The notes below the pieces were generated by a model. It searched no databases, was not told where the DNA came from, and worked only from the letters and a program-made list of their open reading frames with translations. A program made the translations under genes and the position numbers. 64,000 nt of DNA, taken from positions 3,520,562 through 3,584,561 of the forward strand of contig OZ241744.1 in assembly GCA_965200965.1 (NCBI GenBank). The letters are read 5' to 3'. Origin of the DNA: an uncultured Candidatus Binatia bacterium (GTDB lineage: Bacteria > Desulfobacterota > Binatia > Bin18). Shown here piece after piece: positions 43,960-62,799 of this stretch (its first letter is position 1; each line of letters opens with the position of its first letter).

Positions 43960-43980
43960 GTTTCCTCCCTCGTGTACAGT

Positions 43981-44571: not shown

Positions 44572-44586
44572 TGGAGGGTCACTCCT

Positions 44587-45918: not shown

Positions 45919-46083
45919 ACGTCCCTCCCCTTGCTTGCAGACTGCGCGTTCAGGGTAGCAAATCGGCGACGAATGAACAGTCCGGACTTTTTCACCAGCT
46001 TCAGGATTGCAGCGGGCGAAGACGGCCTTCTGCCTGCTCGTCTCGGACCCACTGCCTGATTTTCCGAAGTCAGCTTGCCCGTC

Positions 46084-46670: not shown

Positions 46671-46778
46671 GGCATCGCTCTGACGCCGATGTGTGTCTTT
46701 CACCTGGACAGACTATAGCCACTAGTGAAGGCAATATTGTCGCTTGTCTACCGTCTGCATCAACAAGGAGGGTCACCC

Positions 46779-48308
46779 ATGACTGCCGTACAGATTTCCA
46801 AATCAAAACAGGTCCGGGCCCGGCTGAGTCATTCCGTTATCGACTCCGACGGCCATACCGTAGAGTTTGAACCCGCGGTGATGGACACCCTGCGCGAGCT
46901 CGGCGGGCCGGGCATTGTTGAGCGCTACAAGGTCAAACGCACCGAGGGGCCGACCGCCTCGCTGGGCGGAATGCTGAACTGGCACAGGCTGTCGCCTGCG
47001 GAGCGGCAGACCCAACGCCTGACCGTTCCGCCCTGGTGGGCGCTGCCGGCCGCAAACACACTTGACCGGGCAACCTCAATGCTGCCCAAACTGCTCTACG
47101 GACGCCTGGACGACATGGGCATTGACGTGTCCATCCTGTATCCGACCTTCGGGCTTCTGGCCCCGCACCTCGACGATCAGGAGATTCGCCTGGCCGCCTG
47201 TCGGGCCTTCAACACCTACCACGCCGATATTTTCAAAGAATACGCCGACCGGCTGATCCCGGTAGCGGTGATTCCGATGCACACCCCGGACGAGGCGCTT
47301 GCCGAACTCGACCATGCGGTTGGCCAGCTCGGCATGAAGGCGGTCATGCTGGCCGGCCATGTGCTCCGTCCGGTCCCTGCCGCAGAGGCCGTGTCCTCAG
47401 AAGCCGCCCGCTACAGTTATTGGCTGGATACCTTTTGTCTGGACAGTGACTACGACTATGACCCAGTGTGGGCCAAGTGCGTTGAACTGAAGGTCGCCCC
47501 GACCTTTCACTCCGCGGCGATGGGCTGGGGCAGCCGCACCTCGACCTCAACCTGTATGTATAACCACATCGGCCATTTTGCCGAGGCCGGCGAGGCGATG
47601 TGCAAAGCCCTGTTCTTTGGCGGCGTGACCCGGCGCTTCCCCAGCCTGAAGTTTGCCTTTCTGGAGGGCGGGGTGAGCACCGGGGCGCGGCTGTACGCCG
47701 ACTTGGTCGCTCGCTGGCACAAGCGCAACCCCGAGGCGATTGAGAACTACAATCCGGCCAACCTGAACCCCGAGATGTTGCTTGATCTGTGCCGGAAGTA
47801 CGGCGGCAGGGTCACCGAGGGCCGGCTGCAACACCTCAGCAACGCCAGCGGGGCAACGATCAACACCCGGGCCGCCCCGGACATCAAGAACGACTTCCAC
47901 CGCACCGGCATCGAAAAAGCTGAAGATATCAGAGACCTGTTTATTCCCCACTTCTAATTCGGGTGCGAGGCCGATGATCCCATGAACGCCACCGGCTTTA
48001 ACACCAGGGCAAATCCGTTCGGCGAGCAGGTCCGCTCGGTCTACAGTTCCGATATTGGCCACTGGGACGTGCCCGACATGACCGAGGTGACGGAAGAGGC
48101 GTATGAGCTAGTCAAACACGGGATACTGAGCGAAGAGAACTTCCGCGACTTTGTGTTCACCAACCCGGCCGCCCTGTGGGCGGGCATGAACCCGGACTTC
48201 TTCACCGGCACGGTAGTCAAAAAGAGGTTGGTCGGCTCTTGGCCGAGGCCGTCCACCAGCCTCGCGGGGCGGGGGAGCGCAGGAGGAATCTGGAACCGGC
48301 CACTGTGA
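46779..48308 (+). pseudogene. amidohydrolase-2 family protein interrupted by an in-frame TAA (and possibly an A-run frameshift near 48220)
   Basis: ATG at 46779 after AAGGAGG. ORFs 46725-47957 and 47982-48308 are in the same frame. The sequence reads IPHF*FGCEADDPMN where homologs read HFYFGCEADDP. Downstream has SSDIGHWDV. Confidence 0.75.
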
Positions 48309-48376
48309 CAGCCGCCCTCAAGACGGCCCGCGACTGAACACGGCCCCTCCCCATCAAGGGGGGCGGGAAGGGACCG

Positions 48377-48664
48377 CTAGACGCCTTCAACCACGATCAT
48401 CTGGGCGCGCGAGGCGCTCTGACGCAGTGCCTTGGGTTCACGGTATTCGTCGGAGTTCCACCACGCTTTAGCCTGTTCGACACTCTCAAATTCGAGCACA
48501 ACCACCCGGCTAGGCTGCCAGTCGCCCTCCAGCGTTTCGGCTTGGCCGCCACGCACAATGAACTTGCCGCCATACGCCTCGACCGTTGCCGGGACGAGCC
48601 TGGTATAGCCCTGGTAGGTCTCAGGATCGGTCACGCTGACATCAACAATGATATAGGCTGACAT
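48377..48664 (-). CDS. DUF1330 domain protein
   Basis: 95 aa, MSAYIIVDVSVTDPETYQGY...ARWWNSDEY-type pattern (AKAWWNSDEYRE). Confidence 0.8.
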   Translation of the reverse strand: MSAYIIVDVSVTDPETYQGYTRLVPATVEAYGGKFIVRGGQAETLEGDWQPSRVVVLEFESVEQAKAWWNSDEYREPKALRQSASRAQMIVVEGV

Positions 48665-48805
48665 CGCTCTCCTCCTTGGGAACTCCCCGCCCGCGCCGGA
48701 ATGCTCTACTCCTTCCTATCTGCGCACTTCACCAAATGCAATCGGGCTGGCGTTTCGGGGGAGCCTCGGCTACAGCCGCGTGTATGACAAGAGGGGGAGA
48801 CGCTC

Positions 48806-49281
48806 ATGGCCCGACAGCACGGCTTGCTCTCTGAGCCGACGCCGGCCAGCGCAGCCGGCATTCCCGCCGCCCACCGGCGGTATGCCCTGCTCATCCTGCT
48901 GATGGTCCCGTTTGGCTTCGCCACCTACCTGACGCCGGCCACCCGCCTGGCGCTGGCCGCCTTCATTGTGCCGGCCTTTGTCGGGGGGGTGTTTATCGCG
49001 CCCAGTTTTGCCCTGAATCAGGGCTTGGTCGGTGCGTATGCGGTCGGTGGCTTCGGCCCTGCTGCTGTTCATCCTGAACAGCAGCGGCCTGGGATTTGGG
49101 CCACAAACGATAGGCGTGGTCAGCGATCTGCTCCGGGCCCCGGTATGGCGTTAAGTCCTTGCGGTATGCCCTGGTGGGGGTGTCGTTGCTCAACGTCTGG
49201 GCGGCGTTTCATTACTTCATGGCCGGGCGGACGCTGCCGGCCGACTTGGCCCGGGCCAAGGCCGCGGAGGCGGCTGACTGA
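48806..49281 (+). pseudogene. 3' remnant of an MFS transporter gene with frameshifts
   Basis: Only the last four or so TM helices are present, read across three frames: ...FIAPSFALNQGLVG / RMRSVASALLLFILNSSGLGFGPQTIGVVSDLL / YGVKSLRYALVGVSLLNVWAAFHYFMAGRTLPADLARAKAAEAAD*. Confidence 0.5.
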
Positions 49282-49290
49282 CCGGGGACG

Positions 49291-50163
49291 TTATCCGTCC
49301 TGCTGTGAGGGGGGAGAAGCGGTGTCTGCCAGCCGCCGCTGTATCGAGCGGTACATCCGCCGGCTCAGCCACAGCATGAACCTTGGGGACAGGCGGTTCA
49401 GCCACCACAGCAGCTTCCAGCCGCCCGGGACGATAATGATAGCCGCATTGCGGGCCACCGCGCTAAGCGCCTGCCGGGCAAACTCGGCCGGGTCCAGGGG
49501 CCGGGGCCACCTGACCAAGCTGTCTTGCTGCTCGGGCGACAGGCGCATGAGGTCTTTGCCATAGTGTCCGCCCCCGCGCAGAATCGGGGTCTGGATCAGG
49601 CCCGGACACAGGACGCTGACCCGTACCCCGGTCTCCGCGGCTTCGATGCGCAGCGAGGTCGAGAGGCCGACCACCGCGTGTTTGGTGACGGCATAGCTGA
49701 CGGCCAGCGGGGCGGGACACAGGCCGGCCATTGAGGCGGTATTGACGATATGCCCGTAGCCCTGTCGCAGCATCAGCGGATAGGCGGCCTGGACGCCGTT
49801 GATCACGCCGTGCAGGTTGACCTCAAGCACCAGCCGCCAGTCCTCAGGCTGGTACAGGCGGGCTTCGCCGCCGACGGCCAGCCCGGCATTATTGAAGATG
49901 TAGTCCACACGTCCGTGGGTCTGGACGGTGTCCCGGAGCAGCCGCTCAACCGCGGCGAAGTCGGTGACATCGACCTCAACCGCGTCGGCCGTCCCCCCGC
50001 CGGCGGTGATGCCCGCGGCCACTTCATGGGCCAGCCCAATCTGCCGGTCGGCCAGCACGATATGCGCGCCGCGCCGGACCAACTCTTCGGATACGGCCCG
50101 GCCAATGCCCGAGGCCGCGCCGGTGACAATGGCGACGCCGGCCTGAAAGGTGCGCAGTGGCAT
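49291..50163 (-). CDS. SDR family oxidoreductase
   Basis: The ATG at 50163 overlaps the upstream stop (TGATG). Has TGAASGIGRA, NNAG and YAVTKHAV motifs. Confidence 0.85.
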   Translation of the reverse strand: MPLRTFQAGVAIVTGAASGIGRAVSEELVRRGAHIVLADRQIGLAHEVAAGITAGGGTADAVEVDVTDFAAVERLLRDTVQTHGRVDYIFNNAGLAVGGEARLYQPEDWRLVLEVNLHGVINGVQAAYPLMLRQGYGHIVNTASMAGLCPAPLAVSYAVTKHAVVGLSTSLRIEAAETGVRVSVLCPGLIQTPILRGGGHYGKDLMRLSPEQQDSLVRWPRPLDPAEFARQALSAVARNAAIIIVPGGWKLLWWLNRLSPRFMLWLSRRMYRSIQRRLADTASPPSQQDG

Positions 50164-50663
50164 CAGATCAGAAAAGTCAGGTTGGGCAAGGGTTCTGCCG
50201 CGTTGACCAGCAACACCTGCTTCCAGAACATCTTGAGTTCGCCGTTGACCCAGCGCAGCTTGTGGATCGTCCGCCCGCCCCACTGGCGCAGCTCGTGTCT
50301 GGCCTGGACGGATAGCTCTAACAACAGGAAGTTTGAGCCGACGATACACTCGCCGGCGTCGGTCTTTTCGACCTCGATGTTCGAGATCAGCCGGCGCATG
50401 ACCGAGGCCGGCTCCTGGCTATAGCGGAAGCCGCTTTGGAGGAGCTTGATGCGCGTCGCAATCCGGGATCGGTTGTCGTAGATGTGCGACATCTGGCATC
50501 TGGGGTCGGTGTCGCCGCGTGGCTGGGCCGGCACCCAATAGGTGGCGTCGTCCTCCCACAGGGCTTCCCATTCGGCGTAGCAGGCCTCATCGGCCAGCCG
50601 CGCTTCCTTGTAGAGAAAAGCCTCAACCGCACGATAGTCGGTGTCTGACAGCATGGGGTTCAC
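50163..50663 (-). CDS. aromatic-ring-hydroxylating dioxygenase beta subunit
   Basis: 166-aa SnoaL-like fold with FLYKEARLADE... Overlaps the alpha subunit stop by 4 nt. Confidence 0.8.
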   Translation of the reverse strand: MNPMLSDTDYRAVEAFLYKEARLADEACYAEWEALWEDDATYWVPAQPRGDTDPRCQMSHIYDNRSRIATRIKLLQSGFRYSQEPASVMRRLISNIEVEKTDAGECIVGSNFLLLELSVQARHELRQWGGRTIHKLRWVNGELKMFWKQVLLVNAAEPLPNLTFLI

Positions 50664-51934
50664 CGGCTCATCACCGCGCGGTAGTGTTTCCAGAAGGCGC
50701 GGTTGGTGACCTCATCGGTGACGTGGGCCACGATCCGCCCCTGCTCGTCACGGTGTTCGCGGTGCTGGCCGCGGCTCAACTCCAGCCACTCGGGCTGGCG
50801 GGCGTACAGGCCGGCCTGGTTGCGGCTGGCAATGGTGATGTCCTCGGGCAGCAGAAAGGAGGCCGGGCCCATAGCCGCTTCGCTCTGGCGCAGCAGCCGG
50901 GCGTTCAGCTCTGGTGCGCCCTTGAGAAACATGGGCGTATGCCACTGGATCGATTCCTCGGCGCTGAGCGGATAGAACAGGGCGATGTTCATCTCGGCCA
51001 GGAACAGGTTGGGGAAGATCAGGGCGTGGGGCGGGCCTTCAAACACCCGTCGCTGGGCTTCGGCCTTGCCGCACCTGTGCTCCAGGGCCGACAGGTAGGC
51101 GGCGTATTTGTCAGGAGCGGCACCAAACCACTCAAACGGTTTTTGGTAGCCCAGCGCCCATTCAATCTCGGTATGGCCGTTGCCCCAGTCGCGCACAATG
51201 CCCTTATTGCTGCCCTCGTCGCCGACAAAGCGCTGATAGTGGGAGCCGGCCGCCTTGAGAATGGCGCTATGCACAAAGCCCAGATGATAGCCGTCGGTAT
51301 CGTTCTCGGGGATCATCTTCCAGTTTGACTGGTAGCGGTGTTTGATCCAGCCGGCGCGGAGATCAAGCTCGCCCTCGGGCGACAGGTTACAGGCGCGGTC
51401 AATGATCAGGCTGGCGCTGCCCAGGTGCTCGGCCAGCGACGGGCCGTGGAGGCTCAGGCTGGCGAACACAAAGCCCCGGTAGCTGTCGCAGCGAGCGACC
51501 CGCGACAGGCCATAGTCGGCCTTGTTGAAGTCCGGGCCATAGGCCCCGGGGTAGGGCACACCGGTCAGCCTGCCGCTCAGGTTATACGTCCAGCCGTGGT
51601 AGGGGCAGGTAAACGCCCGGGCGTTGCCCGAGTCTGCCGGGCAGACCATGGTGCCGCGGTGGGCGCAGCGGTTGAGAAAGACCGACACGGCGGCGGCTTT
51701 GTCACGGACCATGAGCACCGGTTGGCGGCCGATCTGACGGGTCACATAGTCGCCCGGCTGGGGGATCTCGCTCTCGTGGCCGACAAACACCCACACCCGG
51801 TAGAAGATTTTTTCGAGTTCCTGCTCAAAGATGTGCGGGTCGGTGTAGAGCGAGGCGTGAACTTTGTCGTCGTGAACCAGGGTCTCAACGACCGGTGTCT
51901 CAAACTGGCTTCCGTTGTGTGTGGCCTGCTGCAT
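50660..51934 (-). CDS. Rieske (2Fe-2S) aromatic-ring-hydroxylating dioxygenase alpha subunit
   Basis: Rieske motif CAHRGTMVC...CPYHGWTY, and a catalytic-domain DGYHLGFVH. Confidence 0.85.
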   Translation of the reverse strand: MQQATHNGSQFETPVVETLVHDDKVHASLYTDPHIFEQELEKIFYRVWVFVGHESEIPQPGDYVTRQIGRQPVLMVRDKAAAVSVFLNRCAHRGTMVCPADSGNARAFTCPYHGWTYNLSGRLTGVPYPGAYGPDFNKADYGLSRVARCDSYRGFVFASLSLHGPSLAEHLGSASLIIDRACNLSPEGELDLRAGWIKHRYQSNWKMIPENDTDGYHLGFVHSAILKAAGSHYQRFVGDEGSNKGIVRDWGNGHTEIEWALGYQKPFEWFGAAPDKYAAYLSALEHRCGKAEAQRRVFEGPPHALIFPNLFLAEMNIALFYPLSAEESIQWHTPMFLKGAPELNARLLRQSEAAMGPASFLLPEDITIASRNQAGLYARQPEWLELSRGQHREHRDEQGRIVAHVTDEVTNRAFWKHYRAVMSR

Positions 51935-52062
51935 GGGCGGTCTCCTTGTGCTATGTGGCGGGCTACTGGCCGGCCCCCCGCGCCTGTCTGCTGCTCTGGC
52001 AAGCAGCCTAGCACACTCGGCGAGCAGGACCTAGCCGCCCGGCGGGCGTTTTTCCCTCACAT

Positions 52063-52098
52063 GCAGGGCAGGTCGGCGTAGCCGCGCGTAAGCCGACA
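52063..52098 (+). repeat. left copy of an imperfect direct repeat flanking the defence islet
   Basis: gcagggcaggtcggcgtagccgcgcgtaagccgaca compared with 55705-55745 gcagggcgcagatcggcgtagctgtcaggcgtaagccgaca. Shared blocks are gcagggc, tcggcgtagc and cgtaagccgaca. Confidence 0.6.
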
Positions 52099-52150
52099 GG
52101 ACGCTTGACCATATATTGAGCAGGTGTGTAGCCTGGCATTCGGAGTAAAG

Positions 52151-52507
52151 ATGATGCACATCACTGAGGCGTTGATTGCCCGGATGGTGCGGGTCATTGT
52201 GGCCGAGGTAGACCCCGAGCAGGTGATGCTGTTCGGCTCCCGGGCCCGGGGCGAGGCGCGGGCGGATTCGGATGTGGACCTGATCGTTGTCGAGGCCGAA
52301 CCCTTTGGGCCGGGCCGCAGCCGCCGCAAGGAGTTGACCCGCGTCAGCCTGGCGTTGTTCGATTTCGAGATCCCTGTTGACGTTCTGCTCTACAGCCGCG
52401 ACGAAATAGACTATTGGCACAATTCCCCCAACCATGTGATTGCCCGTGCCCTGCGGGAAGGCAAGCTGCTGTATGAGCGACCTGAAACAGGCCAGAATGC
52501 TGCTTGA
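52151..52507 (+). CDS. minimal nucleotidyltransferase (MNT antitoxin-type), copy 1
   Basis: GSRARGEARADSDVDL (the GSxxxG...DxD NTase motif). GGAG upstream. Confidence 0.75.
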   Translation: MMHITEALIARMVRVIVAEVDPEQVMLFGSRARGEARADSDVDLIVVEAEPFGPGRSRRKELTRVSLALFDFEIPVDVLLYSRDEIDYWHNSPNHVIARALREGKLLYERPETGQNAA

Positions 52508-52609
52508 GGCCGCTGGACGGGACCTTTCGACCGTGAAGCCGCTCTGGACTTGGCGCAGTCATTATTTGACCGTGTGCAACGCCTCTTGGGCGAGACGGAA
52601 GGAACCTGA
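52473..52609 (+). pseudogene. HEPN toxin gene remnant (core deleted)
   Basis: A HEPN-like start MSDLKQARMLLEAAGRDLS is joined out of frame near 52530 to a HEPN-like end EAALDLAQSLFDRVQRLLGETEGT*. The core, where the R-x(4-6)-H motif would lie, is absent. Confidence 0.45.
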
Positions 52610-52614
52610 GCGGG

Positions 52615-52977
52615 ATGCACGTCACTGAGGCGTTGATTGCCCAGATGGTGCGGGCCATTGTGGATGAGGTAGACCCCGAGCAGGTGATGCTGTTTGGCTC
52701 CCGGGCCCGGGGCGAGGCGCGGGCGGATTCGGATGTGGACCTGATCGTTGTCGAGGCCGAACCCTTCGGGCCGAGCCGCAGCCGTCACCGGGAGATGGTC
52801 AGGCTCTATCATGCGTTGGCGGGTTTTCGGGTTGGCATTGACGTGCTGGTCTACTCGCGTGACGATGTGGCGTACTGGCGCGATTCGCTCAACCATGTGT
52901 TGGCGCGCGCACTGCGGGAGGGGAAGGTGCTGTATGAGCGACCTCCAAGAAAGAGCATGGGCAAAAACGTGGCTTGA
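52615..52977 (+). CDS. minimal nucleotidyltransferase (MNT antitoxin-type), copy 2
   Basis: Same motifs as copy 1. The first 180 or so nt are nearly identical to copy 1. Confidence 0.75.
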   Translation: MHVTEALIAQMVRAIVDEVDPEQVMLFGSRARGEARADSDVDLIVVEAEPFGPSRSRHREMVRLYHALAGFRVGIDVLVYSRDDVAYWRDSLNHVLARALREGKVLYERPPRKSMGKNVA

Positions 52978-53011
52978 TGCAGGGGTTGCTTACCGGCGAG
53001 TGGTGAGTTAG
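52934..53011 (+). pseudogene. second HEPN gene stub (25 codons)
   Basis: MSDLQERAWAKTWLDAG... starts like copy 1's HEPN and terminates at TAG 53009-53011, just where GC content drops. Confidence 0.4.
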
Positions 53012-53143
53012 AGTGCGGCTGAGCTTGGCGAGTATAAAGCAGAAAGACGGGTCTCATGCGAAGATCTTGGGACGGGTTGCCCCGCTGTAGCCAGTGAATG
53101 TATAAATCCACAACCTCCAATAAGACGACCAAAGACGGGGTAG

Positions 53144-54205
53144 ATGAGCTTGAGCGTATCACAAATTTTTCCAGGAATCGAAACCGGCTTAAACAACATG
53201 GGATTCCTTTTCGGTGCGGGTACGTCAAAAGAGGCAGGGTTTCCGCTTATGCAAGATATTACCAGGACAGTGGTCGGCAATCTGTCTCGCGTGAATAGAG
53301 AAACACTGGACAATCTCCTCAGCCAGGAAAGGTTGAGCTACGACGAGACCACTGGAGACCCGAACATCGAAATCCTTTCAGATTCTGTAAGGAGGTATTT
53401 TGTGGATACACAGAACAATAGCTACAGTGAGCTAGAAAGCGAAATTCGTAGAGCAATCGTTGGAACGATTCTCGATGTTAGAAACCCTGATCTGACCTAC
53501 CATATCCAATTTCTCAAGGCTCTAAAAAAAAGAGCAGGCGGTATGCCGCCTAGTACGCCTATTATCACAATCTTTACTACAAATTACGACATTCTTTTTG
53601 AGCTTGCTGCTGGAGAAGTGGGAGTTCGGATCGAGACGGGATTCGATGGCCCCTTGAGTAGATTTTTCAACCCCACAGTTTTCAATCTGCACAGGGGCGA
53701 AATAAGTAGTGGTGGAAGGAAGACAACCTTTGAGGAGAGCCACAAATTATGGATCAATCTCATCAAACTTCACGGCTCGATATCTTGGTTTAAGAAGGGA
53801 AATGCAACAATTGAGAGTGGGATTAACCTCCTTGACCAATGTCGATCACGAGAGATGATTCTTCCTCGCCGCCAAAAGATCATGGACACCTTAGCCCCGC
53901 CTTTCGATTCCTTATTCACTCGCTCTTCGCAGATGCTTGGATCGATCTGTAAGTATCTGGCAAGTTGTGGATTCAGTTTCAGTGACCAACATATCAACGA
54001 TCAATTGATTTTTCCAAAATTGCGGGAAGGAAGGATTCAACTAACCGCGCTTTGTGGAGAAACTCCCGAATGTTTGAACGATCTAAGACAGTTTGGGGCG
54101 TTTTGTGGGGCATTTCCCGATAACTGTTATATTGACGGCAAGGATACAAACAAAGGAACAGACCTTTGGAAATTCAGCGAATTTGTTCGCCTCTTGGAAC
54201 CATAA
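53144..54205 (+). CDS. SIR2-like (SIR2_2 family) defence-associated NADase candidate
   Basis: Motifs FLFGAGTSKEAGFP, IFTTNYDILFE, KLHGSISW and CGFSFSDQHIND. Low-GC segment. Confidence 0.75.
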   Translation: MSLSVSQIFPGIETGLNNMGFLFGAGTSKEAGFPLMQDITRTVVGNLSRVNRETLDNLLSQERLSYDETTGDPNIEILSDSVRRYFVDTQNNSYSELESEIRRAIVGTILDVRNPDLTYHIQFLKALKKRAGGMPPSTPIITIFTTNYDILFELAAGEVGVRIETGFDGPLSRFFNPTVFNLHRGEISSGGRKTTFEESHKLWINLIKLHGSISWFKKGNATIESGINLLDQCRSREMILPRRQKIMDTLAPPFDSLFTRSSQMLGSICKYLASCGFSFSDQHINDQLIFPKLREGRIQLTALCGETPECLNDLRQFGAFCGAFPDNCYIDGKDTNKGTDLWKFSEFVRLLEP

Positions 54206-54225
54206 TGACAAAAGGGGTTTGCAAT

Positions 54226-55725
54226 ATGAGCGACTATAAAATCGGAGAAGTGATAAGCGTTTCTGGCGAAAGAGTCTTCATCACCTTACTTGACTATGAC
54301 GATAAATCGGAGACAGGCGTTCCTTCGACCATGATGGTAAATGTTCTAACAGAAAACGGCCCGACTCCGTTACTGATCGGTCAGCCAGGAACTTTTGTGT
54401 CCATTGCACTATCCTCCGGTAAACTTCTGGCGATGATTACAACAATTGACATGAAGGAGACAGAATTGTTACAGGCTGAAATCAAGCTGCGGGGTATGAA
54501 CGCGGAGGCGGTAGACCTGATCTACTTGGACCCGCCCTTCAACAGCAATCAGACCTATGCCGCACCCATCGGCTCCGAGGCGGCAGGTGCGGCCTTCAAA
54601 GATACCTGGACGCTCGATGATGTAGACGTGGCTTGGCACGGCGAGATTGCCGAGCAGGAGCCGGCCCTCTACGCGATTATTGATGCTGCCGGCCTCAGCC
54701 ACTCGCCGGGCATGAAGAGCTACCTGATTATGATGGCGGTGCGATTGCTGGAGATGCGCCGGGTGCTCAAGCCGACCGGCTCCATCTACTTGCATTGCAA
54801 TCAAGATGCCGGCCACTACCTGAAACTCCTCATGGATGCCGTGTTCGGGAAGAAGGCGTTTATCACAGAAGTGGTGTGGAATTACGGCACTCCATCCGGG
54901 GGGCGCTCCGCTGGGAAAAAGCCGATCAAAGTGCATGACGTGCTGTTGGTCTATGCAAAGCGGTATGGGCAACACCTGTACAACCGGCAATTCACGCCGT
55001 ACAGCGAGCAATACAAAGCTTGGTTCCGTCACGACGATGGCGACGGGCGATTGTATCAGACCCGTTCACGGAAAGGCAAAATCGTCAAGCAATACCTTGA
55101 TGAAAGCCCTGGAATCCCTCTTTCAACCTGTTGGTCAGACATTATGCAGATATACGGACAGCAAGGCTGGTTTCCCACCACACAAAAGGAGCGCACCGGC
55201 TACCCCACCCAGAAGCCCCTTGCGCTGTTAGAGCGCATCATCACCGCCAGCAGCAATCCCGGCGACATCGTGCTGGACCCCTTCTGCGGCTGCGCCACGG
55301 CCCTCGTCACCGCGGAACACCTGAACCGCCAATGGGTCGGCATTGACCTCTCCCCGGTGGCCGCCCGGCTGGTCAAGAGCCGCCTGGAGAAAGAGATGGG
55401 GCTGTTCTACGATGTGCATCACCGCCAGGACATCCCCCGGCGGAGCGACCTGGGCGAACTGCCGCACTACAAGACGCATAAGCATAGCTTGTTCGGTCGG
55501 CAGGAAGGGCTGTGCGGCGGGTGTGGTGTGGCCTTCCCGTTTCGCAACTTCACCATTGACCACATTGTCTCCCGGGCCAAGGGCGGCACGGATCATTTCG
55601 ACAACCTGCAACTGCTGTGCGGGGCGTGCAACAGCGCCAAGGGGCGGGGCACGCAGGCGGAACTCAAGGCGCGGCTGCGGGCGCAAGGGGTGATTGGGAA
55701 GGGGGCAGGGCGCAGATCGGCGTAG
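54226..55725 (+). CDS. chimeric ORF: HerA-type N-terminal HAS-barrel (about 82 aa) fused to a beta-class N4/N6 DNA methyltransferase and a C-terminal HNH nuclease
   Basis: MSDYKIGEVISVSGERVFITL...GQPGTFVSIALSSGKLLAMITTIDMKE (HerA N-terminal pattern, low GC). From about 54470, at higher GC: VDLIYLDPPFNSN (motif IV), DPFCGCATALVTAE (motif I), and HNH CGGCG...IDHIVSRAKGGTDHFDNLQLLCGACNSAKG. An alternative ATG at 54205 overlaps the SIR2 stop. Confidence 0.75.
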   Translation: MSDYKIGEVISVSGERVFITLLDYDDKSETGVPSTMMVNVLTENGPTPLLIGQPGTFVSIALSSGKLLAMITTIDMKETELLQAEIKLRGMNAEAVDLIYLDPPFNSNQTYAAPIGSEAAGAAFKDTWTLDDVDVAWHGEIAEQEPALYAIIDAAGLSHSPGMKSYLIMMAVRLLEMRRVLKPTGSIYLHCNQDAGHYLKLLMDAVFGKKAFITEVVWNYGTPSGGRSAGKKPIKVHDVLLVYAKRYGQHLYNRQFTPYSEQYKAWFRHDDGDGRLYQTRSRKGKIVKQYLDESPGIPLSTCWSDIMQIYGQQGWFPTTQKERTGYPTQKPLALLERIITASSNPGDIVLDPFCGCATALVTAEHLNRQWVGIDLSPVAARLVKSRLEKEMGLFYDVHHRQDIPRRSDLGELPHYKTHKHSLFGRQEGLCGGCGVAFPFRNFTIDHIVSRAKGGTDHFDNLQLLCGACNSAKGRGTQAELKARLRAQGVIGKGAGRRSA

Positions 55726-55745
55726 CTGTCAGGCGTAAGCCGACA
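55705..55745 (+). repeat. right copy of the imperfect direct repeat flanking the defence islet
   Basis: See 52063-52098. This copy spans the MTase-HNH stop codon. Confidence 0.6.
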
Positions 55746-55778
55746 CGGCGGGTGATGTCGGATTACGCTACGCTGATC
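55715..55778. terminator. REP-like long imperfect palindrome between convergent genes (possible bidirectional terminator)
   Basis: Inner stem gcgtaagccgaca (55733-55745) pairs with tgtcggattacgc (55756-55768): 13 bp with 1 mismatch and a 10-nt loop. Outer stem gatcggcgta (55715-55724) pairs with tacgctgatc (55769-55778). No U-tract. Confidence 0.45.
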
Positions 55779-55845
55779 CGCCCTGCTGTGAGCGAGGGGA
55801 GAGGGGAATCAGGGGAATATCATCAGATGAATCCGGGTTCAGACA

Positions 55846-55974
55846 TCAGCGGGCGGCGTGATCGTCGGGCGGCGGTGCTTCTGTGCCGGTCAGCACGCGG
55901 TAGAAACAGAAGCCGACAAGCCCGACGACAAAGCTGACCGATACCAGCATGGAAATCCACCCTCCGGCTGTCAT
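55846..55974 (-). CDS. 42-aa single-TM small subunit downstream of the NSS transporter (MetS / MaAIMP_sms-like)
   Basis: Not in the ORF track because it is under 60 aa. ATG at 55974 after GAGGAGA, 13 nt past the transporter stop. Sequence MTAGGWISMLVSVSFVVGLVGFCFYRVLTGTEAPPPDDHAAR*. Confidence 0.5.
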   Translation of the reverse strand: MTAGGWISMLVSVSFVVGLVGFCFYRVLTGTEAPPPDDHAAR

Positions 55975-55986
55975 TGGCGTGTCTCC

Positions 55987-57618
55987 TCAAGGACGGAATG
56001 TGTCATCAGATCGCACGGCAGGCGAGGCGTTCCGTCCTTCGTCATCCATCGGCAGACGCCCGTCAATATCCAGGCCGGCGGCCCGCCAGCGTCGCTCGCC
56101 GATGCGGGTTATGACGGCGAGCAGGAGCAGGACGACGGCGATAAAGCCCACGGTCCAGCGGGCGACGGCGTTCTGGCTCAGGCCGTGGAGGTAGTCGGGG
56201 AGGCTCTGGAAGCAGAAGCCAACGATAACGACGAGCAGGTAGGCCGGCGAGAGATATTTGATGATGAAGCGGAAGAAATGGGGGATGCGGAGCAAGGCCC
56301 CGCGGTGGGCCTCGGCCAGACCCCGGTCAATGCCGAAGACCCAGCCGAAGCAGATAATCAGCGCGGTGGCCATGACGAAAATGCCAAGCGTGCCAACCCA
56401 GAAGTCCATCGTGTCGAGGGCGACGAGGTCCTGGCTGAAGTACAGCACCCACAGCGAGCCGAAGGTGGACAGCAGGCCGAGACAGGCGATGGCGGTGGAG
56501 CGGGGCATAGCCAGGGCTTCGGACAGGAAGGCGAATATTGGCTGGAGCATGGACAGGGAGCTGGTGACGCCGGCCAGGAACAGCATGAGGAAGAAAATGG
56601 CACCGATGATCTGCCCGAAGACGCCCATGTGGGCGAAGACGACCGGCAGGGTGTGAAAGCCGAGGCCGAAGCTGCTGCCGACGGCGATGCCGGCCCCCAG
56701 AAAGATGAAGGCCGCAGGGATGGTAATCAGGCCGCCGAGGGCGACTTCAACGAACTCGTTGGTGGAGGAGGCGGTCAGCCCGGACAGCACCACATCGTCT
56801 TTTTTGCTGAGGTAGGAGGCGTAGTTGATGATGACGCCAAAGCCGACCGACAGGCTGAAGAAGACTTGGCTGGCCGCGGCTAACCAAGTCTTGAAGTCGC
56901 CGAGTTTGGAGAGGTCGGGGTTCCACATGAAGCCGAGGCCGCCCAGGACATTCTGGTCGGGCAGGCTGGGGTCGGGCGTGCCCAGGGTCAGGACGCGGGC
57001 GAGCACAATCAGGGCGCAGACGAGCATGGTCGGCATGGCGATCTTGCAGAAGGTCTCGATGCCTTTGGCCAGACCACGCCAGATGAACCACAGGTTGAAG
57101 GCGACGGTGGCCAGCAGAAACAGCACGCCGGGGTGCAGGCTGCCGTTCAGGGTCAGGCCGTTGGCCTTGTCGCCGGTCACCGCGGTAAAGAAGTCGCCCG
57201 ACTGGGCGGTGTACCGGGTCGGGTCTGGACCAAGGTCAATGCTGCCGGTCAGGTAGGCAACAAAGTAGCGCAGGCACCACGATTCGATCAGCACATAGTA
57301 CATGTAGACGATGAGCGGGACGAGCAGGCCGAGGACGCCGCTGTAGCGGGCCGTCGATCCCCTGCCGACGATGCCCAGAATGGCCGGGGCGGAATGCAGG
57401 CCCTTGCGCCCGCCGTAGCGGCCGAGGCTCCACTCCGCCCAGCAGATCGGGATGCCCAGAAACAGCAGGGCGCAGAAGTAGGGGATCATGAACGCCCCGC
57501 CGCCGTTCTGGGCGACTTGGCCGGGAAAGCGCAGAAAATTGCCCATGCCTACCGCGGACCCCGCTACGGCTAAAATGACCCCGACCCGACTCCCCCAACG
57601 CTCCTGCTGTTCAGTCAT
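55987..57618 (-). CDS. sodium-dependent transporter, NSS/SNF family
   Basis: Start at MTEQQERWGSRVGVILAVAGSAVGMGNFLRFP, with the canonical NSS TM1 motif. 12 TM-like segments. Confidence 0.9.
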   Translation of the reverse strand: MTEQQERWGSRVGVILAVAGSAVGMGNFLRFPGQVAQNGGGAFMIPYFCALLFLGIPICWAEWSLGRYGGRKGLHSAPAILGIVGRGSTARYSGVLGLLVPLIVYMYYVLIESWCLRYFVAYLTGSIDLGPDPTRYTAQSGDFFTAVTGDKANGLTLNGSLHPGVLFLLATVAFNLWFIWRGLAKGIETFCKIAMPTMLVCALIVLARVLTLGTPDPSLPDQNVLGGLGFMWNPDLSKLGDFKTWLAAASQVFFSLSVGFGVIINYASYLSKKDDVVLSGLTASSTNEFVEVALGGLITIPAAFIFLGAGIAVGSSFGLGFHTLPVVFAHMGVFGQIIGAIFFLMLFLAGVTSSLSMLQPIFAFLSEALAMPRSTAIACLGLLSTFGSLWVLYFSQDLVALDTMDFWVGTLGIFVMATALIICFGWVFGIDRGLAEAHRGALLRIPHFFRFIIKYLSPAYLLVVIVGFCFQSLPDYLHGLSQNAVARWTVGFIAVVLLLLAVITRIGERRWRAAGLDIDGRLPMDDEGRNASPAVRSDDTFRP

Positions 57619-57723
57619 GCTGCTGTCTTCCCTCTGAGACACAATGAGGCAGGCCGTATGTCCACTGCCCGAAGCCGATACCGATTTGTATACCGCCTCG
57701 GGCGGCACGCATCCGACTAGCCA

Positions 57724-58695
57724 CTAGCCACACGCGAGCAGCGCTTGTTGGAGCGCGTCGCGGTCAAAGCCTTTGCCGATGAACACCACATGCTCCGGCG
57801 GCTCGGGCAACAGGTCGATCCATTCCATGTCAAACTCACCCGCAACGTATTGGAACATCCACTGTTCCTCCGAATCGGTAAAACGGACAAAGCCCTTGGC
57901 CCGCCAGACGGTGGACGGCAGAGCACGCATCAAGGCTTCAAACCGGGCGCGGACCAGCGGAGCCTGACACAGGTGGGTCAGGGTATGAAAGTGGTCGTGG
58001 ACAGAGAGGACGGAACGTGTCGCCTTCCGGTCATGTGGGCTGGCCGAACGGGCAAGTGTTCCCGTTGTCGCCAGAATACGGTCGTAGTCCAGTGCTCCCC
58101 GCTCGGTCAGGACAATTTGGGCGCGGGGGTTGAGCCGGCGAATCTGGGCCCTCAGGTCTGCCAGGGTGTGGTCATCGGCCAAGTCGCGCTTGTTGAGCAC
58201 CACAAAGTCGGCCAGCTCGGTCTGTTGCTGAATCCCGGCGTGCAACTCTTCGGCCAGCCGGGCAAAATTGTGCGGGTCAAGCACGGCGATCAGCGACGCC
58301 AGCCGGACCCGGGTCAGGACTTCTTCCTTGGTGGCCTGATCGATCAGTTCGACCGGGTCGGCCAAGCCGGTGGCTTCCACAAAGATAAGGTTCGGCTTGA
58401 GCGCGGCGACTTCCTGGAGGGCCAAGCCGAGCGTGCTGCCGATTGTGCAGCAGATGCAGCCGTTAGTCATCTCGCGGACGCTAAAGCCCTGGCCGCGTAG
58501 CAGTTCGCCGTCGATATTGACCTCGCCGTACTCGTTCATCATCACCGCCGGCTTGAGCCCGACTGCCAGGCAGTGGTCCAGCAGCCGCTTCAGCAGGGTG
58601 GTTTTGCCGCTGCCCAAAAAGCCGGAGAGCAGGTGGAGCGGAATCCGATCGGCCTCGGTGAAGACCAGGCGTTCCTTGTGTGGACTGTCCGCCAT
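57724..58695 (-). CDS. COG0523 / CobW-family GTPase metallochaperone
   Basis: P-loop GFLGSGKTTLL, the metal motif GCICCT, and a C-terminal CobW_C-like domain. Confidence 0.85.
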   Translation of the reverse strand: MADSPHKERLVFTEADRIPLHLLSGFLGSGKTTLLKRLLDHCLAVGLKPAVMMNEYGEVNIDGELLRGQGFSVREMTNGCICCTIGSTLGLALQEVAALKPNLIFVEATGLADPVELIDQATKEEVLTRVRLASLIAVLDPHNFARLAEELHAGIQQQTELADFVVLNKRDLADDHTLADLRAQIRRLNPRAQIVLTERGALDYDRILATTGTLARSASPHDRKATRSVLSVHDHFHTLTHLCQAPLVRARFEALMRALPSTVWRAKGFVRFTDSEEQWMFQYVAGEFDMEWIDLLPEPPEHVVFIGKGFDRDALQQALLACG

Positions 58696-58768
58696 ACGGC
58701 CAGTATTCCAGGATTCTCCAGGCGAGGGAAGGCGGGCTTGGCTCTCCGTCTGTGAGAGATAGGGTTAT

Positions 58769-59968
58769 CTAGCGCTTTAAGCGCTTGAGGGCGGCCTCGA
58801 TCTGGTCCATGCCTTTTTGCAGATTGGCCATCGAGGTGGCATACGAGATACGGACATTGTCGGGTGCGCCAAAGCCCTCGCCGGCGACCAGGGCGACGCG
58901 GGCCTCTTCCAGCAGGTACAGGGCGAGGTCGGTCGCCGATTCAATGCGGCTGTCCGGCCCTGTTGCTCCAAAGTAGCCGGACACATTGGGGAAGACGTAG
59001 AACGCGCCTTCGGGCAGGGTACAGGTGAGGCCGGGAATGGCGCGCAGGCGGTCAACGATGTAGTTGCGGCGTGTGGCAAACTCGGCGGCCATCACGCCGA
59101 CCGGCTCCTGGGTCCCGGTCAAGGCCGCTACTGCTGCGGCTTGGCTGATAGAACTGGGGTTTGAGGTGCTCTGGCTCTGGAGCGTTTCGATCGCTTTGAT
59201 CAGCTCTGCCGGACCCGCGGCATATCCCAGACGCCAGCCGGTCATAGCGTAGGTCTTGGACACCGAGTTGACTAGCAGGACCCTGTCGCGGAGCTCGGGT
59301 TTGCGGGCCAGAATCTGGGCGCACCGCGGTGAATCGTATAAAAACTTCTCGTATACCTCGTCCGAAATAACGATCAGGTCTGTCGGCTCAATCACCTCAA
59401 TCAGCCGGTCCAGCTCGTGTTCCGTATAGGCTGCGCCGGTTGGGTTTGAAGGGCTGTTGAGCAGGAGGGCCTTGCTGGTGGGACCAATGGCCGCTTTGAG
59501 CTGTGCGGCGGTCAGCTTAAAACCGGTCTCCTCGGTCGTTGTCAACAGCTTTGGCCGCGCACCGGTCAGGATCACCATGTCCGAATAGCTGACCCAATAT
59601 GGGGTGGGGATCAGGACCTCGTCGTCCGCTCCAAACAGAGCGTGGAAGGCGTTGAACAGGGTGTGTTTCCCGCCCGAGTTGGTGGTCACCTCGGACAAGG
59701 CATAGCGAAGCCCATTATCCCGTTCCAGTTTGGCGATAATCGCCTCTTTGACGGCCGCGGTCCCGCCGACCGGGGTGTATTTGGTCTGGCCCTGGTTGAT
59801 GGCTGCCACGGCCGCGGCCTTGATATGCTCGGGCGTGTCAAAGTCGGGCTCTCCGGCACCAAAATCAATCACGCTGATGCCCTGGCGACCGAGGGCGGCG
59901 ACCTGGGCGGTGACGGCGAGGGTGGGAGAGGGCTTGATGAGCGACAGGCGTTCGGCAAGCTGTGTCAT
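58769..59968 (-). CDS. PLP-dependent aspartate/aromatic aminotransferase (class I)
   Basis: Has NSPSNPTG and SVSKTYAMTGWRLGY motifs. 399 aa. Confidence 0.85.
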   Translation of the reverse strand: MTQLAERLSLIKPSPTLAVTAQVAALGRQGISVIDFGAGEPDFDTPEHIKAAAVAAINQGQTKYTPVGGTAAVKEAIIAKLERDNGLRYALSEVTTNSGGKHTLFNAFHALFGADDEVLIPTPYWVSYSDMVILTGARPKLLTTTEETGFKLTAAQLKAAIGPTSKALLLNSPSNPTGAAYTEHELDRLIEVIEPTDLIVISDEVYEKFLYDSPRCAQILARKPELRDRVLLVNSVSKTYAMTGWRLGYAAGPAELIKAIETLQSQSTSNPSSISQAAAVAALTGTQEPVGVMAAEFATRRNYIVDRLRAIPGLTCTLPEGAFYVFPNVSGYFGATGPDSRIESATDLALYLLEEARVALVAGEGFGAPDNVRISYATSMANLQKGMDQIEAALKRLKR

Positions 59969-60492
59969 GGTTCTGCTGTATGTGGGGTTGAGGGCACGGA
60001 GGAGTTTTCGGCCAGCTTTTCCCGCAGCCGTTTCTCAACGTGAGGCGGGACCAGCCCTTGGACCGATCCCCTGAAGCTGGCAATTTCTTTGACCAAGCGC
60101 GAGGCGGTGTAGAAATGGGCGGCACCGGTGGCCAGGAAAATCGTTTCAATGTGTGGTTTCATGTGCCGATTCATGAGAGCCATTTGAAACTCGTACTCAA
60201 AATCGGAGGCCGCCCGCAGGCCACGAATCACAAGGGAAGCTCGCATTTTCTCGACATAGTCAACTAGCAGGCCATGAAAACTATCGTAGAGCACCCGGTC
60301 GCCGGCCTCTTTGAACTCCTCGCGGAACATGGCGAGGCGTTCCTCGGGGGTGAATAGATAGTTTGACTTCTGCGGGTTGTACACCACCGCCACGACGACC
60401 TCGTCAACAAGCTCCAGGCTGCGACGGACAATGTCGATATGTCCGTAGGTCGGTGGATCAAAAGAGCCTGGGTAAATACCCCGACGTTTCAC
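59965..60492 (-). CDS. coaD: phosphopantetheine adenylyltransferase
   Basis: GIYPGSFDPPTYGHIDIV at the N-terminus and ISSTLVRE-like ASRLVKEI. Has a longer C-terminal tail than usual. Confidence 0.9.
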   Translation of the reverse strand: MKRRGIYPGSFDPPTYGHIDIVRRSLELVDEVVVAVVYNPQKSNYLFTPEERLAMFREEFKEAGDRVLYDSFHGLLVDYVEKMRASLVIRGLRAASDFEYEFQMALMNRHMKPHIETIFLATGAAHFYTASRLVKEIASFRGSVQGLVPPHVEKRLREKLAENSSVPSTPHTAEP

Positions 60493-61061
60493 GCTGCCTC
60501 CTCGTCCCGGTCCTCATAGAAGGACACCCTGGTTTTGCCGTAACGGCGGCGGTCCGTCAATACCAAACCGCCATAGGCACCAGCCCCGCTCTCACCGGGG
60601 TCATGCTCAACCACGACCCAGGCATTGGGGCTGAGGAGCGGGCCGGCGGCTAAGGCCCGGAGCATCTTGTCCACCCAACCCTGGCCGTATGGCGGATCGA
60701 CGAAGACGCCCTGGAAGCGTAAGCCCTGCTGGACGGCGATTTTCAGCCCGGTTGTGGCATAGGTGCGCAGAATGCGGCCCCGCTGGCGAAAGCCGGTTGT
60801 GCGCAGATTGGTCCGAAGCGTACGCTGGGCTTCCGGGTGCGGATCAATAAAAACGGCCGACTTGGCCCCTCGGCTCAGGGCTTCGAGACCCAGCGCGCCG
60901 GTGCCGGCAAACAGATCAAGGATGGCGGCCCCCTGGAGCGGAAAGCGGCTGGCCAGGATATTGAAAATCGCTTCTCTGACCTGATCGGCCGTTGGCCGGA
61001 CGGTGTAGCCCTTGGGCGCTTTGAGTTGGAGGCCGCCATGGGAGCCGGCAATGATACGCAC
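60489..61061 (-). CDS. rsmD: 16S rRNA (guanine966-N2)-methyltransferase
   Basis: MRIIAGSHGG..L..P....RPT.D.VREAIFNIL, then FAGTGALGLEALSRGA and VFVDPPY. Confidence 0.85.
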   Translation of the reverse strand: MRIIAGSHGGLQLKAPKGYTVRPTADQVREAIFNILASRFPLQGAAILDLFAGTGALGLEALSRGAKSAVFIDPHPEAQRTLRTNLRTTGFRQRGRILRTYATTGLKIAVQQGLRFQGVFVDPPYGQGWVDKMLRALAAGPLLSPNAWVVVEHDPGESGAGAYGGLVLTDRRRYGKTRVSFYEDRDEEAA

Positions 61062-61207
61062 GACGCACTCAGAGTATGGACGGCCACCACGGTGGCCCCC
61101 AGTGTGGTCTGGCTGACGCCGGGCGGGTTTAGGCCGGCGTCAAGCACGCCACTATAGGCACACACGCCCTTGTTCAGCAAGCGGAATTTCGTCACTATGA
61201 GACTATT

Positions 61208-61867
61208 GTGAACTTCGTACTGGTGCCGGTGAAAGCCCTGGCTGAGGGGAAAACCCGCCTGTCGATTGTGCTGTCCGAGACGGCCCGCCGAGCCCTGTCA
61301 CGGGCCATGCTGACCGATGTGGTGACGAGTGTTTTTCAGGTTCCGACGGTCGATCGGGTCGCGGTGGTCAGTTCCGACCCGTCCCTGCTCGCCCTGGCAC
61401 GGGGGCTGGGAGCGTTGACCGTAGATGAGGGGCATCCGCGCGGGCTGAACGGGGCGACCGGGCTGGGGACAGACTTTTGTCTGCGTCACGGGGCAACAAC
61501 GCTCCTGGTGTTGCTGTCCGATTTGCCGCTCATCCGCCCACAAGACATCGCCCATCTGTTCGCCCAGCTGAGCGGCCGGCCTGAGATCCTGCTCGTGCGC
61601 TGTAAGTATGGGGACGGGACCAATGCCTTTATGCGCGTGCCGCCACTAGTCATGCAGCCGTGTTTTGGTGGGCCAAGCCTGGCCGCCCATCAACAGGCCG
61701 CCCGCCGACAGGGTATTGCGTGTCGTGTTGTCGAGGCACAGAGTATTCGCTTTGATCTGGACTCGGTGGAAGACCTCAAACAGTGTGAACACAAACAGCT
61801 CGCCCCGCATACCGCTCGAGTACTACGCGAGTCTGGTGTCTTTAGCATTGACCGACCGAAAGCGTAA
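61208..61867 (+). CDS. cofC: 2-phospho-L-lactate / phosphoenolpyruvate guanylyltransferase (F420 biosynthesis)
   Basis: VLVPVKALAEGKTRLS..L....R..L..AML.DV N-terminus and a LLSDLPL motif. 219 aa. Confidence 0.7.
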   Translation: MNFVLVPVKALAEGKTRLSIVLSETARRALSRAMLTDVVTSVFQVPTVDRVAVVSSDPSLLALARGLGALTVDEGHPRGLNGATGLGTDFCLRHGATTLLVLLSDLPLIRPQDIAHLFAQLSGRPEILLVRCKYGDGTNAFMRVPPLVMQPCFGGPSLAAHQQAARRQGIACRVVEAQSIRFDLDSVEDLKQCEHKQLAPHTARVLRESGVFSIDRPKA

Positions 61868-61878
61868 ACCGGTGGAAC

Positions 61879-62799
61879 ATGGGGAAGCCCAAGCTTGTGG
61901 TGATTGCTGGGCCAACGGCCAGCGGAAAAACAGCCCTGGGGATTGAGTTGGCCGGCCTCTGTAACACCGAAATCGTGAGCGCTGATTCCCGTCAGGTGTA
62001 CCGCTATCTCGATATTGGGACGGCCAAACCCACGCCCCACGAACGGCGCGCCGCCCGCCACCACTTGCTTGACGTGGTTGAGCCGGATGCGGGCTTTGAC
62101 GTGGCGCGTTTTCGTCAGCTGGCCCAGACCGCCATCGCCGATATTGTGCAGCGCGGAAAACACGCCTTGGTGGTCGGCGGGACGGGGCTCTACATCCGCG
62201 CCCTGACGCGCGGGCTGTTTGATGGACCGCCGGCCGATAGCGCGCTGCGGGCCCGTCTGCGGCAGCAGGAAGACGATGTGGGCGGCAGTTTTTTACACCG
62301 CCAGTTGCAACAGATCGATCCGCCGGCCGCCGCCCGCCTGCATCCGAACGATAGGCCGCGCCTCATCCGGGCCTTAGAGGTGTTTCTGCTCAGCGGTACC
62401 CCGCTCAGTCAGTGGCAGGCGCGGCACGGCTTTCGAGAGCGCCCTTTTGACACCCTGACGATCGGACTCGAACGAGACCGTGCCAGCCTGCACGAACGAA
62501 TTGGCCGGCGCTGTCGGGAGATGGTACAGAAGGGGCTAGTGGAAGAGTTGCGTGGGCTGTGGCAGCTGGGCTATAGCCCCGACCTGCCCGTGCTGCAGAC
62601 GATTGGCTATACCCAGATGCGGCGTGTCCTTGAGCACCGGTGTGGGCTGGAAGAGGCGCTGACCGACATGGCGCAACACACCCGGCGGCTGGCCAAACGG
62701 CAGATGACGTGGTTTCGCGCTGAGCCGGCGGTGTGCTGGTTTGGGCCAGACCAAATTGACCAGATTCGGACCACGGTCGCAAAATTTTTGCACCTTTGA
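61879..62799 (+). CDS. miaA: tRNA dimethylallyltransferase
   Basis: P-loop GPTASGKT, SADSRQVYR..DIGTAKP and HHLLD. 306 aa. Confidence 0.9.
   Translation: MGKPKLVVIAGPTASGKTALGIELAGLCNTEIVSADSRQVYRYLDIGTAKPTPHERRAARHHLLDVVEPDAGFDVARFRQLAQTAIADIVQRGKHALVVGGTGLYIRALTRGLFDGPPADSALRARLRQQEDDVGGSFLHRQLQQIDPPAAARLHPNDRPRLIRALEVFLLSGTPLSQWQARHGFRERPFDTLTIGLERDRASLHERIGRRCREMVQKGLVEELRGLWQLGYSPDLPVLQTIGYTQMRRVLEHRCGLEEALTDMAQHTRRLAKRQMTWFRAEPAVCWFGPDQIDQIRTTVAKFLHL

Follow-up and report, generated by a model that had tools for sequence, protein, structure and literature searches.

A chimeric HerA::methyltransferase-HNH reading frame next to a SIR2 gene in an uncultured Candidatus Binatia bacterium: probable scar of a recent deletion in a decaying defence island

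Introduction

We analysed a stretch of 64,000 nucleotides (hereafter the window) from an uncultured Candidatus Binatia bacterium (assembly GCA_965200965.1, contig OZ241744.1, positions 3,520,562 to 3,584,561 of the forward strand), in which the gene for a SIR2 effector is followed by a single reading frame that begins as HerA and ends as a DNA methyltransferase (MTase) with an HNH nuclease domain. SIR2 and HerA together make up an anti-phage system, reportedly of the Garb et al. 2022 type. A first-pass annotation of the locus had left two readings of the chimera: a scar left where recombination had destroyed a SIR2-HerA system, or a new pairing in which the HAS-barrel of HerA connects SIR2 with a methylase/nuclease. 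The first reading is borne out by a near-identical sister contig that is undeleted and stands one 1,570-bp deletion apart from the window. The locus is, very probably, a recently degraded defence island, and its chimera a scar, dead or decaying, of systems already known rather than a new defence system.

The SIR2 gene and the chimeric reading frame

The SIR2 protein matches the PADLOC SIR2 model PDLC04081 over its full length (E=1.8e-136; residues 1-351; 345 profile positions) as well as Pfam SIR2_2 (E=5.5e-8), and it has the catalytic N/D…H motif (TTNYD, residue 145; KLHGS, residue 208). The downstream open reading frame (ORF) runs uninterrupted to 55725, with candidate starts at TTG 54166, ATG 54205 and ATG 54226; ATG 54205 overlaps the SIR2 stop codon TAA as TAATG, and the frame counted from it encodes 506 aa. 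The first ~94 aa of the chimera match HerA alone (PADLOC HerA PDLC04105, E=7e-4), and the remainder matches N6_N4_Mtase, from residue ~103, and then HNH (Table 1). The profile searches proposed at the outset, for residues 1-85 and for SIR2, thus return the expected families, and the identification of gene 1 as a defence SIR2 of the SIR2_2 type stands. The in-frame fusion of a HerA-like start to an MTase-HNH is likewise established by the uninterrupted ORF, by the profile matches and by identity to the HerA N-terminus of the sister contigs L001 and L022 described below.

The GC content is 61% window-wide, 59-70% in the flanks and ~46% in the SIR2-HerA cassette. Between 53000 and 54490 it falls from ~60-68% to ~41-48%, and at 54400-54600 it climbs from ~0.41-0.47 to ~0.54-0.62. 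This jump had rightly been taken to mark the end of the HerA part, which had been given ~82 codons and a switch at ~54465-54480; the exact junction lies at 54486/54487, after 87 or 94 codons according to the start chosen.

Table 1. Features of the SIR2/chimera locus (window coordinates)
Feature	Position	Strand	Basis
Retained left portion of low-GC (~46%) SIR2-HerA cassette	53045..54486	+	Match to relative L002, which lacks this cassette, stops at 53044
SIR2 (SIR2_2-type NADase effector of SIR2-HerA systems), intact, 353 aa	53144..54205	+	PADLOC PDLC04081, Pfam SIR2_2
HerA 5' remnant, 87 codons from ATG 54226 (94 from ATG 54205)	54226..54486	+	Identical to codons 1-94 of L001/L022 HerA
Deletion junction, blunt (…ATCAAG joined to CTGCGG…), without microhomology	54486..54487	.	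BLAST and direct three-way sequence comparison
MTase-HNH gene without its first 25 codons (MVRKQTTGAANWQNRTLWTGDNLDI), own start and ribosome-binding site; read from the HerA start	54487..55725	+	Family alignment, L022 comparison
Domain of a beta-class N4/N6 DNA methyltransferase, with DPPF as motif IV and FCGCAT as motif I	54511..55374	+	Pfam PF01555, E=2.2e-37, profile positions 1-219 of 221
Variable middle (putative target-recognition, TRD) segment of MTase	54795..55185	+	No DNA match to L002 or L025
C-terminal HNH nuclease domain	55513..55647	+	Pfam HNH (PF01844), E=9.7e-13; HNH_5, E=2.6e-12

Undeleted sister contigs and the origin of the chimera

Two contigs carry the locus in an undeleted state. 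L022 is a 234-kb ENA scaffold found by exact look-up of the Met36-start version of the SIR2 protein, and L001 is a 3.3-kb Logan contig found by exact look-up of the SIR2 protein, its assembler being independent of that of L022. The two are 100% identical over 3,347 bp, and the SIR2 protein of both is 100% aa identical to that of the window. L022 matches window positions 43249-54486 at 99.87% identity (15 mismatches, no gaps) and positions 54487-62632 at 99.6%. At the site of the chimera both contigs hold SIR2 and a 576-codon HerA, followed in L022 by an MTase-HNH gene with its 5' end present, of which L001 reaches the first ~95 nt.

The window equals L022 minus 1,570 bp (L022 11239-12808 = L001 1757-3326), and the absent sequence comprises HerA codons 95-576, a spacer of 46 bp and the start of the MTase-HNH gene, of which 75 nt (25 codons) are missing; in L022 this gene begins 75 nt upstream of the junction position. 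MTase codon 26 thereby follows directly on HerA codon 94, or on codon 87 if HerA is read from ATG 54226 instead of ATG 54205, so that the MTase lacks 25 residues and not the 10-15 estimated at first. The junction consists of …GAAATCAAG joined directly to CTGCGGGG…, and the bases on the deleted sides differ; there is therefore no microhomology, and no repeat able to mislead an assembler. A single blunt deletion, acting on a canonical arrangement of SIR2-HerA + MTase-HNH, gave rise to the chimeric ORF.

The direction and the age of this change can be read from the same comparison. The HerA of L022 and L001 covers positions 8-346 and 364-573 of the 576 in PADLOC HerA PDLC04105. Cryo-electron microscopy structures of SIR2-HerA are 8wiv, 8xau, 8ziq, 9c1m and 8j4u, and the HerA chains in four of them (8ziq, 9c1m, 8xau and 8wiv) are matched by the L022 protein with E=1e-73 to 1e-93. 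Because the L022 HerA fits the full PADLOC profile and the HerAs in the PDB, and the L022 MTase N-terminus fits the family consensus, the L022-like arrangement is evidently the progenitor and the window the derived state. The segment 53045..54486 is L001/L022 sequence except for one synonymous base (53608). As this is also the one difference between the window and L001 over the 1,756 bp that end at the junction (52731-54486), and the following 660 bp of the MTase show no difference from L022, the deletion is a recent event. Its in-frame outcome was probably due to chance, being expected one time in three.

We propose that a low-GC, horizontally acquired two-gene SIR2-HerA cassette sat directly upstream of a stand-alone MTase-HNH gene, and that one illegitimate, microhomology-free deletion in the lineage of the window would have left two stumps in frame by chance. 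The chimeric ORF would then be a pseudogene-like scar and not a designed fusion. In this respect the locus resembles other deletion-made fusions and pseudogenes in defence islands, two neighbouring genes of the same orientation having been joined by a blunt internal deletion and nearby defence genes of sister strains having suffered nonsense, frameshift and deletion damage; it differs from the usual case in that an undeleted progenitor is available at 99.9% identity, which makes the event unusually well documented.

The end of L001 deserves a separate remark. This contig, which carries the undeleted allele, stops at 3327-3347 (= window 54487-54507), 21 nt past the breakpoint, which hints at a branch in the assembly graph of that sample and at the possible co-existence of both alleles.

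The HerA remnant

The L022 HerA carries Pfam DUF87 and HerA_C, and at this locus these domains are found in the sister contigs L001 and L022 only. The RecA-like ATPase (Walker A/B, DUF87), the helical bundle and the C-terminal elements of HerA are all gone from the window, in agreement with the first-pass annotation, which had noted that the ATPase core is absent. As phmmer matches to HerA relatives begin at query residue 8, which is the residue encoded at 54226, the alignments point to ATG 54226 as the native HerA start.

The beta-barrel of Paenibacillus HerA spans aa 1-132, and its SIR2-binding residues include I100 and Q110 (PMC11472057). HerA query residue 109 aligns with residue 88 of the Paenibacillus protein (8wiv), and for this reason the break at residue 94 corresponds to about its residue 73. 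The barrel is therefore incomplete in the window: ~45% of it has been removed, with the equivalents of I100 and Q110, and the conserved PVGT…FERG…LPTV strands, common to all PDB homologues, have been deleted. What had been called a HAS-barrel N-terminus is indeed HerA, but part of the beta-barrel and not the whole HAS-barrel domain.

The view that the beta-barrel is the part of HerA that docks on SIR2 agrees with the solved complexes, although docking there uses complete barrels on a HerA hexamer, each SIR2 alpha1 helix being bracketed by two adjacent barrels; moreover, SIR2 alone has minimal NADase activity and needs assembly with HerA (PMC11472057, PMC11514289). The window resembles such systems in that its SIR2 is a full-length member of the PADLOC family of SIR2-HerA SIR2 proteins and precedes, in the same direction and with translational coupling, a HerA start, with a matching 576-codon HerA in the sister strain. 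Unlike them, it keeps only the first 87-94 HerA codons, and assembly as described in PMC11472057 and PMC11514289 would not be possible. The deletion has left the system without the HerA ATPase/helicase and without a complete beta-barrel ring; because these are gone, SIR2 would now be an orphan, neither assembled nor activated, with at most basal NADase activity.

A further lesion was observed in the sister strain, whose HerA has an in-frame TAG at codon 347 (L022 11995-11997 = L001 2513-2515), where the PDB HerAs have Leu at the aligned position. In view of this stop codon, the SIR2-HerA system may have been inactive already before, or independently of, the deletion in the window.

The MTase-HNH part and its missing N-terminus

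In the 506-aa frame, motif IV (DPPF, residue 109) precedes motif I (FCGCAT, residue 360), and the HNH residues DH…N…CN are conserved. PDB relatives of the MTase are CcrM, M.MboIIA, M.RsrI and EcoP15I Mod. Thousands of MTase-HNH proteins were matched in 5.8e9 protein clusters. The protein resembles stand-alone beta-class MTases with a C-terminal HNH in showing the same order, DPPF … TRD … FCGCAT … HNH, and 75% identity to its best relative. Such family members occur singly or in defence islands; in the window, unlike in the family, the first 25 residues, which include the WTGDNL strand, and the start have been replaced by a HerA fragment. Among the 120 matches listed, relatives are 318-492 aa long (nearly all ~395-490 aa), and each covers just ~60-82% of the chimera, namely the portion after residue ~95. 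A literature search found no characterised beta-MTase-HNH fusion.

In the family alignment, relatives open with M…NWxNxTLWTGDNLDI(M/L)RGMN, and the window protein enters at LRGMN. The element NWxNxT(L/I)WTGDNL, a strand and helix before the DPPF strand, has thus been deleted. Of the 67 members aligned, all 51 with a called N-terminus that reaches the motif keep WTGDNL (51/51). The other 16/67 "short" members might have shown that the N-terminus is dispensable, but this was rejected: in 3/3 of those checked (4 loci), WTGDNL can be read in frame shortly before the annotated start, which is therefore miscalled. In the AlphaFold model of the intact relative P0001, residues 10-13 form a strand and residues 16-22 a helix, with a predicted local distance difference test (pLDDT) score of 86-96. 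Having lost its own start together with a conserved N-terminal strand and half-helix, the MTase-HNH would most likely be inactive or crippled.

The variable middle segment of the MTase (Table 1) has no DNA similarity to L002 or L025, whereas its flanks are 90-99% identical, and the corresponding insert of P0003, the MTase-HNH protein of L002, is different and longer. The specificity domain therefore appears to have been swapped by recombination.

Elsewhere, the family is found alone or beside other defence genes, with no constant partner. A Septu-like functional link with an upstream ATPase was considered and rejected, as the upstream neighbours vary (PDC-S06, OLD-like ATPase, GmrSD, or none). 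In a contig of another organism (L023 1483-7278), three paralogues of MTase-HNH, of 459, 219 and 425 aa, lie around a type IV restriction gene (GmrSD), and on this account MTase-HNH genes seem to cluster in defence islands. In addition, homopolymeric C tracts were observed just 5' of the conserved N-terminal motif in MTase-HNH genes of other organisms: ~27 C in L026 (~2915-2945), and C9 in one and C10 in the other of two copies carried by a single 2.2-Mb contig (L028 and L029, ~2925-2935); an upstream ATG is in frame with the C10 copy but not with the C9 copy. These tracts look like a basis for slipped-strand phase variation in the family.

Search for other fusions

When 1.84e9 representative proteins were searched exhaustively by phmmer for the 94-aa N-terminus, 24 matched and none was a HerA-N::MTase fusion; the matches that extend beyond the breakpoint all continue as HerA (…PVGTID…FERGTDVLPTVN…), and none continues into an MTase. 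A word-index search of 5.8e9 clusters with the same 94 aa returned 2 fragments only and no fusion, and the fusion protein, with any ATG start, was absent from a 15e9-protein collection by exact look-up; none of 12 alternative starts gave a match, although for those other than ATG this negative carries no information. From the MTase side, the N-terminal 100 aa of the chimera were covered by none of the 120 MTase-HNH matches listed. At 19 distant SIR2 loci in GTDB genomes the fusion was found in 0/19, and the canonical SIR2-HerA pair in 16/19, with a downstream HerA that is largely full-length and in a few cases fragmented. Recurrence of HAS-barrel + N6_N4_Mtase + HNH near SIR2 had been put forward as an argument for function, and no second example emerged from the 24 phmmer matches, the 120 listed relatives or the 19 SIR2 loci. 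The HerA-barrel::MTase-HNH architecture is, as far as these collections reach, unique and not a recurrent family.

A strain-variable and decaying defence hotspot

The slot between the second nucleotidyltransferase (NTase) gene and the MTase-HNH gene is a hotspot at which conspecific genomes, with flanks 98.5-99.9% identical, carry three low-GC cassettes: SIR2-HerA, a PDC-S06-like AAA_13 ATPase, and HEPN with an OLD/AriA-like ATPase. In the window (52945-54486; MTase-HNH 54487-55725), the cassette consists of SIR2 and the HerA 5' remnant, and the MTase-HNH has its 5' deletion and is fused in frame to that remnant. L022 (9797-12717) and L001 have SIR2 and the HerA with the in-frame TAG; the MTase-HNH gene of L022 carries a -1 frameshift, the base equivalent to window 55147 being missing (L022 13469), and L001 covers only the beginning of this gene. 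In L002 (8166-9984), the PDC-S06-like gene (8262-9886) is split by an internal deletion into ORFs of 213 aa and 328 aa, which match profile positions 1-167 and 409-724 of 732 and lack positions ~168-408, and the MTase-HNH (P0003) is intact. In L025 (5529-7930), HEPN and an OLD/AriA-like ATPase stand before an MTase-HNH gene with a Gln-to-stop nonsense codon (~8877-8879).

The MTase-HNH gene is thus broken three ways in three strains (window, L022 and L025) and intact in L002, P0123 and P0124; because of these separate lesions, relaxed or negative selection on it is suggested for this species. With four conspecific genomes, three cassettes and at least five independent inactivating lesions, the hotspot is evidently in decay. 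A functional link between SIR2 and the MTase-HNH finds no support, since the MTase-HNH family has no constant partner elsewhere, and their adjacency appears to reflect the insertion of a cassette beside a resident gene.

The SIR2-HerA cassette measures 2,921 bp in L022 (9797-12717), and its slot has the pair of MNT-type NTase genes on one side and an SNF transporter gene on the other. The cassette DNA had no match in plasmid or phage collections, and a scan of genome contigs with SIR2 returned solely distant SIR2 relatives (<=32% identity), with neither a donor nor a member of the host species among them. The host belongs to an uncultivated lineage, and the closest named relatives of its AccA protein, at ~75-78% identity, are from Methylomirabilota, Binatia and Thermodesulfobacteriota metagenome-assembled genomes. 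Scans of the window for Rfam families and tRNAs were empty, there is no tRNA or integrase-type integration signature, and promoter and terminator scans gave no signal above background. The NTase genes are in tandem (window 52124-52507 and 52615-52977), share ~83% DNA identity and are followed by stubs of a HEPN partner, of 22 codons after the first (52473-52538) and ~4 codons after the second (52934-52944); a full HEPN is present in L025.

Alternative explanations

Several observations weigh against reading the locus as a dead or decaying scar. The SIR2 gene is fully intact, the chimeric frame is unbroken through 506 codons, and past the junction the MTase and HNH keep every invariant residue; a stable fusion protein, or an MTase-HNH initiated internally (e.g. 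at ATG 54496), could still be produced. In the S. aureus complex, early barrel strands (the beta3-beta4 hairpin) contact SIR2 (PMC11514289), and the retained HerA segment may include such strands. In the AlphaFold (AF2) model of the fusion, pLDDT is 34-58 over residues 1-90 and >90 for most of the MTase-HNH core, and the low N-terminal values are weak evidence, the alignment there being only 3 sequences deep. Finally, the deletion allele is known from one assembly only.

A first alternative is that SIR2-HerA is indeed a scar and the MTase-HNH moiety is active, either as a fusion whose expression depends on the SIR2 operon or through internal initiation, and goes on methylating and/or cutting DNA. 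The MTase domain of Pfam and the HNH are complete, the family-invariant residues downstream of residue 96 are all retained, and the absence of secondary decay so far and the confidently modelled core point the same way. However, the 25 deleted residues hold the universally conserved WTGDNL, predicted with confidence as a strand and half helix beside the DPPF strand, and the gene has been broken independently in two sister strains, suggesting that it is dispensable or costly here. We consider continued activity of the MTase-HNH unlikely.

It is also conceivable that the junction does not belong to the dominant genome, either because it was created in assembly or because it marks a minority allele. 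The relatives all come from metagenome assemblies, the fusion protein is on record nowhere, and the end of L001 just beyond the junction position suggests that the graph branches nearby. Against this, the two breakpoints offer neither repeat nor microhomology, L022 runs collinear with the window for >8 kb to the left and to the right of the junction, and the junction lies in the middle of the 64-kb window. We hold this explanation to be very unlikely.

A functional neo-fusion, in which the HerA barrel fragment would still bind SIR2 and link it to an active MTase-HNH as a new SIR2 + methylase/nuclease module, could appeal to the in-frame junction, the retained TAATG coupling, the intact SIR2 and MTase/HNH motifs and the SIR2-binding role of the barrel in solved complexes, but it is highly improbable. 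No other protein among billions has this architecture, which a very recent blunt deletion made out of a canonical one; ~45% of the barrel is missing, as is the hexamer that places two barrels round each SIR2 helix; the N-terminal region is predicted with low confidence; the MTase lacks a conserved structural strand; and in sister strains these genes are inactivated through other lesions. The new pairing envisaged by the first-pass annotation is not upheld, its architecture being unique, its barrel truncated and its MTase deprived of a conserved structural element. Scarcely credible is the specific variant in which early barrel strands of an expressed fusion would bind the SIR2 alpha1 helix and yield a SIR2 oligomer decorated with MTase-HNH units; were it true, a newborn SIR2-methylase/nuclease effector complex would have been caught at its origin.

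Conclusions

The genes at this locus appear to be of kinds already known, in a degraded state. For the discovery of new systems the finding has little consequence, the locus being, on the scar reading preferred here, a broken copy of the known SIR2-HerA system that a deletion has fused to a neighbouring methylase-nuclease gene. Its value lies in providing a base-pair-resolved example of the decay of a defence island and of the origin of novel-looking chimeric ORFs. It also carries a caution for domain-architecture mining, in that a singleton fusion in a defence island should be compared with sister strains before a new system is named.

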